Positions 3,968-63,608 of a DNA stretch of 64,000 nt are shown piece by piece. This stretch comes from Octopus vulgaris (taxonomy: Eukaryota), in the NCBI GenBank assembly GCA_951406725.2, contig OX597814.1, positions 132,804,001 through 132,868,000 on the forward strand, written 5' to 3'. Each line of letters opens with the position of its first letter. The first letter of the stretch is position 1. The notes under the pieces are model-generated. The model saw nothing but the letters and a program-made list of their open reading frames with translations. It was not told the origin of the DNA and searched no databases. Both the position numbers and the translations under genes were made by a program.

Positions 3968-5132
3968 TGAGGGTCGGTTGAAAAACCTATACCCTGGTAT
4001 GTGACTAAATGAGGTTTATTTTTCAACATAAATTCCCTTGCGGTCCAGACACTCCTTCTGTCGCTGTTGCAGTGCTTGGATTTCATTGATGAAAGCTTGC
4101 ATCCAGTTGATAAAAGACGTTATGAACAGCAGAGATGATGCCATTATCACTGCGATACTGGTTTCCAGTCAGGTGCTTTTTCCTGTTGGTGAACAGATAA
4201 TAGTTAAATGGGGACAAATCAGGAAAAAAATAGGGAGGGTGATCAATCAGTTCTAAACCATTGAAACCAAGGACTTGTATGCTGCATCATTGTCCTGATG
4301 AAACAAGTTACCTTTCGTTAGTTTTACTGGCGTTTGGTCTTGATAGCCTCTCGTAACAACTTCAGCAAGTTGGCACAGTACTCTCCATTGAGAGTATAAT
4401 GCGTTTCGTACTTGGACAAACAGGCCATCTGCTTTCTGCAGACGAAACGACCTTGGCGTTCTTTGAAGTAAGTGAGGAACGGTGTTTCCACTGCATGGAT
4501 TGTCTCTTTGTCTCTGGCTCAAAGTGATGAAGCCAATACTCATCCTGATGTGGTGAGACTAGTGCGCTTTTGATCAGGTCTCAGAAGACGTGGCAGAGTA
4601 GAAACCTTTGTCATGCCAAGTATATTGTGCAGAGTATTTTCAACTCTCCAACGGGATATGAAAATAACATTGGTTATTTGATATATAGTCAATCGCCAGT
4701 CATCCATCAACATGTGGTGTACATGATCAATATTTTCCTCGGTGGTGGCAGTTGACGGTTATCCAGACCTTGTCATCTTCAAAACTCTCCTCTCCCTTCC
4801 CCTCCCAAATTCAGCTGCCTGCTTTTGCATTATTGATAAAGCTGAAGCGTCATTCCATAATGTAGCAATCATGTCAGCGTGAACCTTGTTGGGGGCTAAA
4901 ACCACTTTCTCCAGGTACTTGATAACACCACGATGTTAAATTTTGATCCTTTTCAAGAGAAGTCGCTAGTAGTTACTTTCGAAGTCTTGTTTGGATAGTC
5001 AGATGTCAGTTTACCTGGAAAGAAACGATGATGTTATTTATAAGAGGAGTTGAAATGAAAGCATGCAAGATATCACAGCTCTAGAATCATCCTCTAATAG
5101 GCTGCCTATGAATCATTTAGTACACCATCGTA
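3968..5132 (-). mobile_element. Decayed mariner (DD34D-type) DNA transposon with transposase pseudogene at ~4025-4950
   Basis: Minus-strand translation across frameshifts gives HRGVIKYL..HADMIATL, TATTEENIDHVHHMLMDD, WLHHFEPETKRQSMQWKH, FHQDN.AAYKS and HPPY..PDLSP.NYYLF..KKHLTGNQYRSD. Degenerate TIRs GAGGGTCGGTTGAAAA and TTTAGTACACCATCG-TA. Confidence 0.9.
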
Positions 5133-14717: not shown

Positions 14718-15690
14718 AGGATGTAGAGTTGAAGATTGGTCAGGATAAATGTTGTTTTATGGTTGTCAAAAGGAGGAAAACTATAAACCAGACTAGCTAT
14801 ATTTCCATCAATGATTTGACTTTTTCCCTATATATAACGAGGAACGTTACAAATGTCTAGGAGTGGTTGAAAACATATCTTACAATGGCACCTGTAACAA
14901 AACACGTGTCACTAAAGAATATTACAGCCGAATAAAGAAAATTTGGATCTCAGAACTCTCTACATTTAATAAAACAGTGGCCCACAATGTGATTGCTGTG
15001 CCAGTACTTATGCCAACATTTGGGCTGCTTGATTGACCACGTGATAAGATCCGAGCCATTGATGTGACAAGCCGGAAGTTACTAACAAGCACACATAATT
15101 TCCACATGAACAATGATGCAGACCACCTCTACCTAAAACGAAAACAAGGTGGCAGAGGCTTAACATCGATTCAAAACACCTTTGAATGTCGTAGCATATC
15201 CTTTCAGCAACATCTTCTAACCACCAAGTGTCGGGGTGCATCCCTTGACCCAGTTTACATACATGAGGCTGATAACATCATAAAACTTGAAAGGCAGCCA
15301 CTTAAGTAACATTCCTTCTCTTATAACCTAGAATACATGTCCAAAGAAGTCGCACGACTCTTCCGCAACGTTTCATCAGATGAAAGGATGAGCCTATATG
15401 AGCAGAAGAAAGCTCCGAGATGATAGTGACTTTGATCATCAAAGCAGTCTATCATTGACGAACAGCCCGGATTGCTACTTCCCACTTTGAAGGATATGCC
15501 TTCGTATTCCAGGAATAATAAATATCAATCAACTACCTGATGCAAAAAAGATATAGAGATCCCGGAAAAGCAGTAACATGTGACAACCGATGCAGACTTT
15601 GTGGAGTTAACACCGAAGATATCAACCACATCATAAGCAGTTGTCCTAAAATGTCATCACGCTATTATCCACCGATGAGACATGACCTTG
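14718..15690 (+). mobile_element. R4/Dong-like LINE fragment (RT C-terminus/thumb to CCHC knuckle), disrupted
   Basis: DVELKIGQDKCCF, YKCLGV.ENISYNG..NK.RV.KEYYSRIKKIW.SELS.FNK, HLYLKRKQGGRGL and CRLCGVNTEDINHIISSC..MRHD, with stops and frameshifts. Confidence 0.9.
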
Positions 15691-49574: not shown

Positions 49575-50474
49575 CAAGTTTCTTTATTGGCCACACAGGG
49601 CTGCACACAGATGGGACAAGTTACAAGGTACAGCTTTTCTTTTGGGGGATGAAAAAAAGGTGGCGTAGGTTTTCGATCAAAAGGGATCGTAAAAGGGGGA
49701 AAAAAAGGAAACGAAAAAAAGAAAAAGGGAAAAGGAACAAAAGAAAAGAAAAATGAAAAAAGAAGAAAAAAGAGGAAAAAAGGGAAGAGGAAAAAAAACG
49801 ATCAATAGGGATCGTGTATCACAGTGCCATGATGTATGGTGTAAAGGGGAAAGCAAGTAAGGTTTATCCGTGGGAAGAAAAGCCTACGAAAAAGACCACG
49901 GTAACCTTGGTCAATATTGTTATATGTTACCACATTTGTTTGCAAGTGGGTAACCCTCTGTTTTCAATTTCTGGGTTCATAGGATCATGCTCAAGGTGGC
50001 TTCGTCATTCATACGTGCCATCCTTGCTACATTCACCCATCTTTTTTTAAAACGTTCGCTAGACAAAACGTGCCTCTCTACTCTCACTTTCCTTTTCAAG
50101 TGGTACTTGAAGAAGTTGATGAGAGGTTGATCAGAGAGGAAAGTGTTTGTCTCCAATCCTTTCAGACTCGTCCACCAGATACATTCTTTCGCCATACACA
50201 CAAGGATGATGAAAATAGCTCTTCCTTCCCGTTTGAAGGAAGGAGGCGTGACAATATTGACGATAGACTCAGCTGATAAACCGACTCGTCCCACACGTGA
50301 CAGCAGTTGTTCGACATAAGCCCACAGGTCGGAAATTGTTGGACACTGCACGAATGCGTGCAGAACGGTTTCGTCGCTCTGACCGCATCTCGGGCAGGTC
50401 GGCCCCGTGTTTCTCGAGCCGTGTCTGTAGAGCTTATCCCGAACGGGTAGCGCTTCTCGGTAGCACTGCCAGAG
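49575..50474 (-). mobile_element. Young 5'-truncated Tx1/L1-clade LINE (ORF2 C-terminal CCHC/zf-RVT region + 3' UTR) inside a (GATA)n array
   Basis: Open frame 50471-49977: WQCYREALPVRDKLYRHG..TCPRCGQSDETVLHAFVQCP..LW..MAKECIWW..F..RW. The 3' end is AATAAAGAAACTTG followed by (TCTA)n, and (TCTA)n also lies at the 5' junction. Confidence 0.92.
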
Positions 50475-50552
<78 letters not shown>

Positions 50553-50567
50553 GTAGGTAGGTAGGTA

Positions 50568-50615
<48 letters not shown>

Positions 50616-50619
50616 TATA

Positions 50620-50860
50620 CTTTATTTTAAGCAGCAGAAAATTCAACAAAATCTGTTACTCTGATGTTGAGATTAGCGAATTTGTTGTCTCGGATGTGTT
50701 CAGGGAATTGGTCGGCTAAGCAGTGTCTCGTTTGGCCAGTGTACAGAGTAACAGATTTTGTTGAATTTTCTGCTGCTTAAAATAAAGCATATTACTCTAC
50801 CACTGGTATTTGAGTACTCTTTTTTCCACCTTGTTTCACATTTATATGTTTACTCCGGTA
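50620..50860. mobile_element. PLE-type terminal fragment with a 44-bp inverted copy enclosing an 80-bp duplicated segment
   Basis: 50620-50663 is the exact reverse complement of 50744-50787. The loop 50664-50743 matches 50977-51056 with 1 mismatch. The right part ends in (TA)n. PLE identity is inferred. Confidence 0.7.
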
Positions 50861-59825: not shown

Positions 59826-60120
59826 TTTGTGTGTGTGTGTGTGTGTACGTATGTATGTATATACATATATATGTATGTATATATGTATATATAATCAAAA
59901 TAAGTAGTAATGCAGTACGACCCTTTCAAGCGACTCCACTTAATTGAAGAATGCAATCATTACATCAATTTAAATGTAGTGCTATCTTCAGCTGCACAAA
60001 TATGGCTTTTTAACAGACAAGATATATGAATATAATTTTGCTTAAATACTTTAATAGAGTAAGAGGAGGGAAGAATTTCATGTTGTCAACTGATTCTTAA
60101 TTACTTCTTATAAATATAAT

Positions 60121-61320
60121 GTGGATTGGCAGATCGTGTCCGCCCTCCCTTGTCGGTTTCGTGATGCTGTGGACAAGAATTTTCCAGGGAGTATCAGGTG
60201 CCGTTCCGTTATCAATTCACACCGAGTTGGGATAGGTTTTTCAAACACCAGGGGCCTTTTGCAGGTCATCTCTTCGCATGGCAGTGGGTTGTTGAGTGCA
60301 GGTTCACTTCATGAGAATAATAACAGTGATGTTGTTAGCGCTGATCATTCTTTGGGCAATAGTAGCAGCAGTATTGATGTTTTTGATATGGGTTCGGGTC
60401 GTGTTCGTTTCCTTAGCGGTGGTTCTGGGCCTGGAGTCTCTGTTTATCAATGTAAAATTGCTTCCGGTTCTGACGTCTTTTTTGTGTTGGTAGCTCATCG
60501 TCTCGGTTTTCGAGGGGAGTATCTGGCCATTGCTCTACGTTTGGAGGTGTCAATGAGCGCAGCAGAGCTGGGCTTGGTGAATTGGTTTGGTCTCTAGGGT
60601 GGAATGGTGGACAATTCAATTTGAAGTAGGGGTTTCTATCTGGATCCTTCCCATGACAGAGGTGGTCTTTTTTTCTGCTCTGTAACGAAGAACAATTTCT
60701 CATACTTTTCTCAGTGAATTATCTTCTAAACACGTTTAATGAACGCCTTCCTCGTTGTAAACATTGGCCAATATATACCTTTAATACCTATAGGTAATTT
60801 CTACCAATCTACAAAATACAACCTTTAACTGTCTTCTTACATTTCATTTCCACTTCATATATCTATTTCTACGCTTTTAAACTTTATTTCCATTCATCTA
60901 TCATACTGTATTTTTTCACTCTTAATTTTCTGTAATTTTTTTTTCTTTCTCTTCCTTCTCTTTCTCGTTGAATCTCTTAACGCGATTTAAAAAATAATAA
61001 CATGCTAGCGTTCCCTTTCATCATATACGCGGTAATCATATTCGGTTAAAATGGCTTATTGATGCGTTTTGCTTCTCTGTTTCCCCTGACGAGATGACTG
61101 TATTGTTTTACATCAGTTTTATTCTCTCCGGAATAATCTCAATGTTTTCTTCGAAACATATGTTGGAAGTATAAATGATTTGAATAACGCCTGTGTTTGA
61201 CTCCATATCTTAATTTATCCATTTATACAAAGATATTTCACTTAACCCTGGACTTTCTGCCTTTATAAGTAGGCTGTAATATCCTTGGCACTTATGTAAA
61301 TTTTTGCTACCCTGGAAACT
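60121..61320 (+). mobile_element. 5'-truncated Penelope-like element: RT linker + GIY-YIG endonuclease pseudogene (60121-60797) and 3' pLTR; apparently A-to-G hypermutated
   Basis: DKNFP..RSVINSHRV.IGFSNT..LLQVISSH..LL, VYQCKI..[frameshift]CVG...RF....H.STF.......GL..LVWSL and LCNEE..LI......LLN..NE....CKH match the Penelope C-terminal motif order. TA-rich repeats follow. Confidence 0.85.
61080..61168 (+). ncRNA. Hammerhead ribozyme-like motif in the PLE 3' region (long stem II, degenerate)
   Basis: TTTCCC-CTGACGA-GATGA...TCTTC-GAAAC-ATAT-GTT-GGAA: intact core, palindromic ACATATGT stem III, stem I TTCC/GGAA. Confidence 0.55.
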
Positions 61321-61404
61321 ATTTATTTATTTTTTCGTACTATCTGTACGCATTGAAAAATTACGCATACATTTATATATATACGCACATATATATACAA
61401 ATGT

Positions 61405-61458
<54 letters not shown>

Positions 61459-62644: not shown

Positions 62645-63202
62645 GTTCTCCCTTTCTGTCTTGTCTTTCTCACAACAGTGTGTCTCTTCCTTTGGTAACA
62701 TTATCCTTGGAAAAAGTTTGAGAGAATTTTACCTGGATTTCCTCCTTTAGTTTTATGCTTATATTTTTGCTCATCCATATGCCAACAATCCCTTGTCTGT
62801 GGTTTTAAAAAGAAGGCAAAAGAAAATTCAAAATCAAAATGAGAAAGGAAACAATTTCACAAATCAAAAAAAGATACTAATATAAATACTAGTTGTGGGA
62901 AAAAACGTATCTCATTTTCGAAATCCGCCGTCTTCTTGCCGTAAATATAAGAAACTAGCAACTAAGTATGGCCCTGATATAATCAACTAAACACTTCTTC
63001 ACAAAATATATGGCTTCCTCTATATGATAAATCAATACAGAATAAGATTAAGGGACATTTCTCCAAATTAACCTTAAAAGACCGAAACAAGATTTTCTCG
63101 GTTACCTACAAAGGATCCACACGTATGTTTAACAAAAGTAATTTATAAACAAATATATTCAACTCTTTTCCACACTACTAAGAAATTTCATGAAAAATGA
63201 AG

Positions 63203-63364
63203 CAGGCTGTGTGGTAAATAGATTGATAACCAATCACATGGTTCCGGGTTCAGTCCCACTGCGTGGCACCTTGGGCAAGTGTCTTCTGCTATAGCAACGG
63301 GCCGACCAATGCCTTGTGAGTGGATTTGGTAGACGGAAACTGAAAGAAGCCTGTCGTATATATG

Positions 63365-63395
<31 letters not shown>

Positions 63396-63608
63396 TTGTG
63401 TGTCTGTGTTTGTCCCCCTAGCATTGCTTGACAACCGATGCTGGTGTGTTTACGTCCCCGTCACTTAGCGGTTCGGCAAAAGAGACCGATAGAATAAGTA
63501 CTGGGCTTGCAAAGAATAAGTCCCGGGGTCGATTTGCTCGACTAAAGGCGGTGCTCCAGCATAGCCGCAGTCAAAGTATTTGAAACAAGTAAAAGAGTAA
63601 AAGAGTAA
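63203..63608 (+). mobile_element. SINE family B, well-preserved full-length copy
   Basis: GGCTGTGTGGTAA (A-box-like), GGTTCAGTCCC (B-box-like), GGCACCTTGGGCAAG core, internal microsatellite and (AAAGAGT) tail. Confidence 0.95.

Follow-up and report, generated by a model that had tools for sequence, protein, structure and literature searches.

How could one strand of a single transposable element copy come to carry G in place of A along more than 500 bases? The question is raised by positions 60121 to 60670 of the 64,000-nucleotide stretch of Octopus vulgaris DNA analyzed here (the window), for which a sequence-only reading had proposed a Penelope-like element (PLE) whose RNA was hyperedited by ADAR, retrotransposed, and inactivated on arrival. 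We compared this copy with its relatives in the same genome, with contigs from other samples, and with copies of an abundant SINE. The features under discussion are listed in Table 1. Papers cited by PMC number were available in part, and statements drawn from them hold for those parts.

Table 1. Positions of the PLE copy, its subdivisions, and neighboring repeats in the window
Feature	Position	Strand	Basis
5′-truncated Hydra-like PLE copy, consisting of RT-EN linker sequence, a remnant of the GIY-YIG endonuclease, and the 3′ UTR, with RT absent	60124..61397	+	blastn against 29 copies; ORFs of copies; alignment to P0001
A>G hypermutated tract, starting at the insertion's 5′ end and stopping sharply on the 3′ side	60128..60665	+	A>G 99/198 vs T>C 3/172; profile; contigs of four runs
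3′ remainder of this copy, unedited; same subfamily	60666..61397	+	A>G 8/196; marker rho 0.68
Hammerhead-like cores (CUGAnGA ... GAAA) in the 3′ UTR, untouched by A>G	61086..61157	+	both cores kept in about 42-44 copies
Piece of a different, unnamed repeat adjoining the 5′ end	59902..60089		one A>G among differences from 11 copies
(TA)n microsatellite at the 3′ junction	61398..61455		sequence; usual target of Hydra-clade PLEs (PMC8557442, available part)
Abundant tRNA-like SINE copy that supplied only the coordinates for the genome-wide probe; outside the edited locus	63200..63580	+	genome matches

The PLE identity proposed for the copy was borne out by its family, whose members carry a reverse transcriptase (RT) with a GIY-YIG endonuclease (EN) C-terminal to it and align across both domains to the outgroup protein P0001, an intact relative (best E = 7e-37). 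Pfam matches on family copies stayed below the cut-off (GIY-YIG, E = 0.013; RVT_1, E = 0.022), the ORF in the window had no Pfam match, and an Atlas search returned unnamed clusters and, in addition, one with a GIY-YIG share of 11%. On the element, Rfam reported only microsatellite noise, with no hammerhead match despite the cores at 61086 and 61153. Because the ORFs of natural copies read on the + strand, + is the sense strand of the PLE. With the Hydra clade of PLEs, as described in the available part of PMC8557442, the family shares the order of RT and C-terminal GIY-YIG, a DKT motif (here in L015), CxxC and CxH near the C-terminus (L014/L024), the (TA)n junction, and inverted partial copies. 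Inverted or tandem 5′-truncated partial copies are frequent in the family (L002, L011, L018, L030, L049, L073, and others). In contrast, the CxCX5C linker, present in P0001, is replaced in the family by an Asn-rich (AAC/AAT) stretch (60310-60410 in the window); given the missing linker, we call the family Hydra-like and assign no clade membership.

Other repeats were seen in and around these loci. The repeat that adjoins the 5′ end of the copy (L032-L042) is short and present in high copy number, bears a hammerhead-like first core on the − strand, occurs in tandem or inverted arrangements in L037 and L040, and is possibly a non-autonomous PLE-type element. Further GIY-YIG-like PLE fragments lie near family copies at L006:462-1073 (−) and L010:3022-3759 (+; weak Pfam match, E = 0.0012). 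By eye, ORF fragments in the window at 49980-50621 (−), 15037-15306 (+), and 4256-4558 (−) resemble LINE or transposase remnants, and no host exon was recognized in the window.

A search of the 2.8-Gb genome (227 contigs) with 60100-60900 as query, in which the best 40 of 995 candidates were scored, yielded 43 matches, and among these scored matches the closest other copy had 76% identity across most of the query sequence. With further loci added and 16 removed as duplicates or as the window itself, the set comprised 63 distinct loci, of which 52 covered at least 200 tract columns, and the majority base of each column across the other genomic copies was taken as the family state. Within the tract, 99 of 198 family A's are G in the window, compared with 3 of 172 T's changed to C, the corresponding change of the counter-strand (p = 1e-29); the family columns thus read A, the spectrum is asymmetric, and the A>G excess lies on the sense strand alone, as had been predicted. 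The remaining changes were few (A>T, 6/198; A>C, 3/198; G>A, 3/59; C>T, 6/96). The A>T and A>C counts are at background level, being 4 and 4 in the 3′ part, and the G>A and C>T counts leave no APOBEC-type signature in the tract.

The clustering expected for 60121-60670 was also found. In a per-40-base profile, the outermost changed A's lay at 60128 and 60665, and the rate held near 50% throughout, apart from a single dip at 60440-60479 (1/9), before stopping abruptly at 60665; in the 3′ part only 8 of 196 A's were changed (tract vs 3′ part, Fisher p = 3e-27). On its 5′ side the tract begins where the insertion does, and no A>G excess is seen in the flanking repeat. Over the same tract columns, A>G in other PLE copies had a median of 2.6% and a maximum of 14/144, and in long pairwise alignments with 29 other copies, differences with A in the copy and G in the window numbered about 90-125, versus about 7-21 in the reverse direction. 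Divergence other than A>G was similar in the tract (28/525) and the 3′ part (44/689), with a median of 5.7% in other copies, which points to one burst of change on an old copy. The possibility that the template had switched from one subfamily to another at 60665 found no support; the subfamily markers of the tract and the 3′ part correlate across the boundary (rho = 0.68, 44 copies).

Of the first 110 codons, 46 were hit by A>G; 42 of these changed the residue, none became a stop, and the YIG motif of the window copy reads CVG. The ancestral residues had been predicted from family motifs, and those residues are present in natural copies (IISSHNNK, FFYIG, SNHYSTFR, and TGLSKLIWSLK). A by-eye reading of P0001 agreed with the A-state at most of the changed motif residues, which fixes the direction of change as A to G. 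The composition cited in the sequence-only reading was exact (24 G and 10 A in 60541-60600; 7 G and 18 A in 60721-60780). The single ORF assumed across the stretch was not: the reading frame changes near 60484, and at 60627 a stop arises from a G>A change.

The same reading had noted that 7 of the 10 A's surviving in 60541-60600 follow G or C. The count is right, but it does not serve as a context test, since some of those flanking G's are themselves former A's, and we therefore recomputed neighbor effects on family columns. In the PLE tract, A was changed in 49/74 cases after A, 33/51 after T, 10/36 after C, and 5/22 after G (pooled A/T, 82/125, vs C/G, 15/58; odds ratio 5.5, p = 6e-7), which is the ADAR-type 5′ bias that had been anticipated. 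Ordinary A>G changes in other PLE copies were nearly flat by 5′ neighbor (A/T/C/G, 3.3/3.0/2.0/2.4%), and a G on the 3′ side had no significant effect in the tract (14/21 changed, p = 0.25). Later CpG decay could contribute in part to the low number of G's after C. An excess of 5′ A/U and a depletion of 5′ G are described for ADAR in the available parts of PMC8586724 and PMC2873906, and squid editing is described as clustered, with neighbor preferences, in that of PMC4384741.

To place the changes in DNA, we compared the locus with 4 of 24 listed runs (X2, X4, X7, and X9), omitting X1, which may be the source of the assembly. All four are contigs of guessed or unknown kind and of genome size (1.5-2.6 billion letters), and they represent four studies and four organism labels. 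Contig depth was flat over most of the tract, and by hand comparison the tract G's were retained at 99/99 positions in X2, 97/99 in X4, 97/99 in X7, and 72/75 covered in X9, which differs from the window at 17 of 584 bases. The 5′ junction was bridged by contigs of X2, X4, and X7, and the 3′ boundary of the tract by those of all four runs; at 60373, where the window keeps the family A, all four have G. No RNA run was listed for the locus. The G's are thus real in DNA, as proposed, being found in DNA-scale contigs of other samples. Their presence under four organism labels indicates that the change is genomic and old, in line with the heritable record that had been suggested.

We assign a close to negligible probability to an artifact or to ordinary evolution, under which the G's would reflect an error of assembly or polishing, a subfamily rich in G, gene conversion biased toward GC, or TpA hypermutation of both strands. 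Ordinary A/G variation does occur, as at SINE columns 63288 and 63503, which are real subfamily variants and were dropped from the counts below. Against such origins, however, the G's recur in contigs from four studies, T>C is not raised, A after A was changed as often as A after T, and at one probed site only 1 of 54 PLE copies has the G's.

Heavily edited copies are indeed rare in the PLE family. That 1 among 54 all-purine probe matches is the window itself, a second site toward the 3′ end had no edited copy among the 100 listed of 104 all-purine probe matches, and searches with parts of the tract or with a two-G probe found no further heavily edited PLE copy. In another PLE subfamily, L068:1496-1599 (−) shows 10/38 sense A>G changes in about 100 bases, mostly after A or T (14/144 overall); this weak candidate was not counted, because it sits in the Asn-rich linker and was retrieved with the edited query. 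Two-G probes for the upstream repeat gave 2 and 1 matches on the two strands, with no additional G and no denominator. Neither an A>G nor a T>C tract emerged when 44 ten-kb stretches (40 arbitrary and 4 neighboring; 59,785 testable columns) were scanned without bias, and A>G matches in A/T-only microsatellite columns were discarded as alignment noise. Small clusters of other changes (G>A, 9/33 at L022:1601-1760; C>T, 7/13 at L126:4828-4898) are probably due to CpG decay or chance.

A search for other A>G-hypermutated copies, which the sequence-only reading had recommended, was productive in the SINE, which we take to be tRNA-derived and whose sense orientation we take from its A/B-box features. 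A 23-base probe with three A's forced to G had 35 matches, with the 152,890 matches of its all-purine form as denominator; 2-3 would be expected under independence, calculated from a 2.35% rate or from pooled site rates of 8/181, 3/180, and 5/179 (partly by eye). The forced T>C control probe had 2 matches, its denominator being equal (33 vs 32 in 729 kb). In the 30 fetched of the 35 matches, the free probe sites had extra G's at 55 of 210 positions; the corresponding count in the first 100 unselected matches was 8/700 (by eye). Outside the probe, and with six variable columns removed before counting, A>G stood at 106/1370 in the matches vs 129/5480 in 141 unselected alignments (p = 9e-19), T>C in the matches at 30/1526, and A>T and A>C at 1.5% and 1.0% vs 2.3% and 1.3% unselected. 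Seven of the 30 were individually significant (L099, 19/52; L102, 14/53; L093, 7/21; L108; L117; L112; L116), and the other 23 had only short clusters and did not reach significance on their own outside the 23-base probe. The sets of G's were distinct in 28 of 30 matches and rare changes were shared by only 2 pairs, which again speaks against a subfamily or other ordinary origin. If the three given sites were hit together in 10-30% of edited copies, the 35 matches would imply roughly 100-300 edited copies among the SINE matches in the genome.

The clearest second example is L099:1290-1660 (C6 near 107,344,400, − strand), a full-length SINE with about its first 300 bases heavily A>G changed. 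Its inner microsatellite is nearly all TG, and its 3′ end and outer (TA)n flanks are unaltered; a general shift from (TA)n to (TG)n in the SINE inner repeat was not seen (p = 0.47). Sense A>G clusters of varying extent also occur in SINE copies near base 1500 of L102, L093, L108, L117, L100, and L098.

Along the SINE matches, A>G fell from 60/506 in the 5′ part and 33/275 in the middle to 13/545, the background level, in the last 90 bases. Clean 3′ ends in both elements (the last 90 bases of the SINE and the last 730 of the PLE) fit a need for an intact priming end, although the probe lies mid-element and a decay with distance is possible. They would also fit a misreading of template A's in bursts by the RT itself, or under a skewed dNTP pool, in the manner of a diversity-generating retroelement (DGR) RT and with no inosine: the 3′ part is the first to be copied, and it is clean in the PLE copy, with a rate close to background in the SINE matches, and this mechanism likewise predicts changes on the sense strand and confined to the element. 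DGR-type mutagenesis, however, turns A into any base, and A>T and A>C remained at background in both the tract and the SINE. The 5′ A/U bias fits ADAR, and the pattern occurs in both a PLE and a SINE, probably copied by different RTs. We consider misreading by the RT very unlikely.

The changes could instead have been made in place after an unedited insertion, either through deamination of the DNA strand of an R-loop or through gene conversion templated by cDNA of the locus's own edited transcript. ADARs can act on DNA:RNA hybrids in vitro, and the sharp internal boundary could be that of a conversion tract. Several observations nevertheless run counter to this scenario. The PLE tract coincides with the 5′ end of the insertion and spares the adjoining repeat, the strand of the changes tracks element orientation (35 vs 2 probe matches), and L099 combines a TG-rich inner repeat with outer (TA)n flanks whose A's are intact. 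A search for a duplex partner of the tract turned up none in the window, in the next 40 kb, or within one close natural copy. Inverted SINE neighbors were not enriched among the matches (7/30 vs 12/38 random) and were themselves unedited (A>G, 4/403). These findings favor editing before insertion, and we regard a change in place as highly improbable.

Which activity acted before insertion bears on the missing duplex. An adenosine deaminase other than ADAR1/2 (ADAD- or ADAT-like), or deamination of single-stranded A-rich loops, would accord with the lack of a detected duplex, with two heavily changed SINE sites that fall in predicted loops (at a hand-chosen probe position), and with the SINE context. 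In the SINE, the 5′ preference is for A over T: with the forced TA site excluded, changes numbered 87/521 after A, 19/268 after T, 26/362 after C, and 25/374 after G, so that 5′ T is not above C or G, unlike in the PLE tract. At free probe sites, G was found in 41/90 cases after A and 14/120 after G, in the direction of the ADAR-type bias. The SINE RNA's own fold is unremarkable (z = −0.36). A 540-base tract at 50% density, on the other hand, is typical of ADAR on long dsRNA, and we know of no other animal enzyme that makes such dense tracts. The chance that a different deaminase or a single-stranded substrate accounts for the data appears to us very small.

Taken together, these results make ADAR-type editing of the element's RNA before retrotransposition very likely; ADAR as the enzyme, and a duplex as its substrate, we infer. 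The source transcript would have formed a fold-back duplex with an inverted partial copy, of the kind common in this PLE family, and ADAR would have hyperedited the duplex stretch. The unedited 3′ end could then have been primed and copied by the PLE RT, with inosines read as G and synthesis stopping at 60124, and the resulting germline copy would have been fixed before the sampled lineages split. No source locus for an edited transcript was identified in our searches. The available part of PMC11167929 supports target-primed copying by a PLE protein, and that of PMC13445718 argues that editing depends on intramolecular duplexes.

Two consequences drawn in the sequence-only reading fared less well. 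The copy cannot be said to have been inactivated on arrival by editing, because it is 5′ truncated at 60124, inside the RT-endonuclease linker, and without an RT was non-autonomous in any case. ADAR-based restriction is unsupported as well: the copy inserted although edited, and such copies form a small minority (1/54 and 0 of 100 listed at the two PLE sites). Edited copies are most likely a by-product of editing rather than proof of defense, and surviving copies cannot reveal how many RNAs were destroyed. We raise as a tentative conjecture, rather doubtful on present evidence, that germline ADAR hyperedits retrotransposition-competent PLE and SINE RNAs and that only molecules with an unedited 3′ RT-binding end insert. 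If that were true, hundreds of scarred copies would have escaped a restriction that depends on editing and would form a fossil record, open to dating, of how active ADAR is in the germline and which sites it prefers, overlooked because genome screens sought G>A. Restriction of LINE-1 by ADAR1 (PMC5224506) likewise involves ADAR acting on a non-LTR retrotransposon; as reported in the available part of that paper, however, it is editing independent, with no editing in more than 2.5 kb of L1 RNA, whereas editing-type changes are found here in the genome.

The closest precedents in print are ADAR-hypermutated retroviral proviruses. ADAR-type A-to-G hypermutation was reported in RAV-1 and avian leukosis virus (Felder 1994; Hajjar and Linial 1995; both as cited in PMC8586724), and the BLV 3′ LTR has A>G clusters with at least 7 changes in about 70 bp (PMC8025556). 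According to the available parts of these two PMC papers, such cases share with ours rare, clustered A>G changes ascribed to ADAR on RNA and fixed by RT, but they concern infectious LTR viruses in culture or somatic cells, whereas a non-LTR PLE and a SINE are affected here, fixed in the germline of an invertebrate, with 99 changes in 540 bp common to four organism labels. APOBEC "DNA editing" of genomic LTR elements (PMC4866542) is likewise a strand-biased hypermutation found by comparing copies; its footprints, in contrast to the A>G seen here (G>A, 3/59), are sense G>A, made on cDNA, and, in the available part of that paper, limited to vertebrates, with G>A selected, C>T as control, and none in 19 invertebrates. 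Transcriptome hyperediting of repeat dsRNA, including that of coleoids, shares A>G clusters and 5′ G depletion (PMC2873906, PMC4384741, available parts), but it consists of differences between RNA and genome that are not inherited, whereas here the G's are in DNA. In a literature search that lay mostly outside subscription papers, we came across no account of A>G-hyperedited PLE or SINE copies fixed in the germline, or of other germline-fixed non-LTR copies of this kind; the supplement of PMC4866542 on other mismatches may bear on this point.

A-to-I editing is held to be non-heritable, and these copies show editing-type changes in germline DNA that have been kept across lineages. The catalytic action of ADAR on germline retrotransposons thereby becomes testable from assemblies alone, and the footprints give ancient editing preferences in a lineage of extreme editing. 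Such copies are also a source of false subfamilies and of A>G strand asymmetry in repeat evolution. If the ADAR reading is true, the genome would be an inherited record of past RNA editing.
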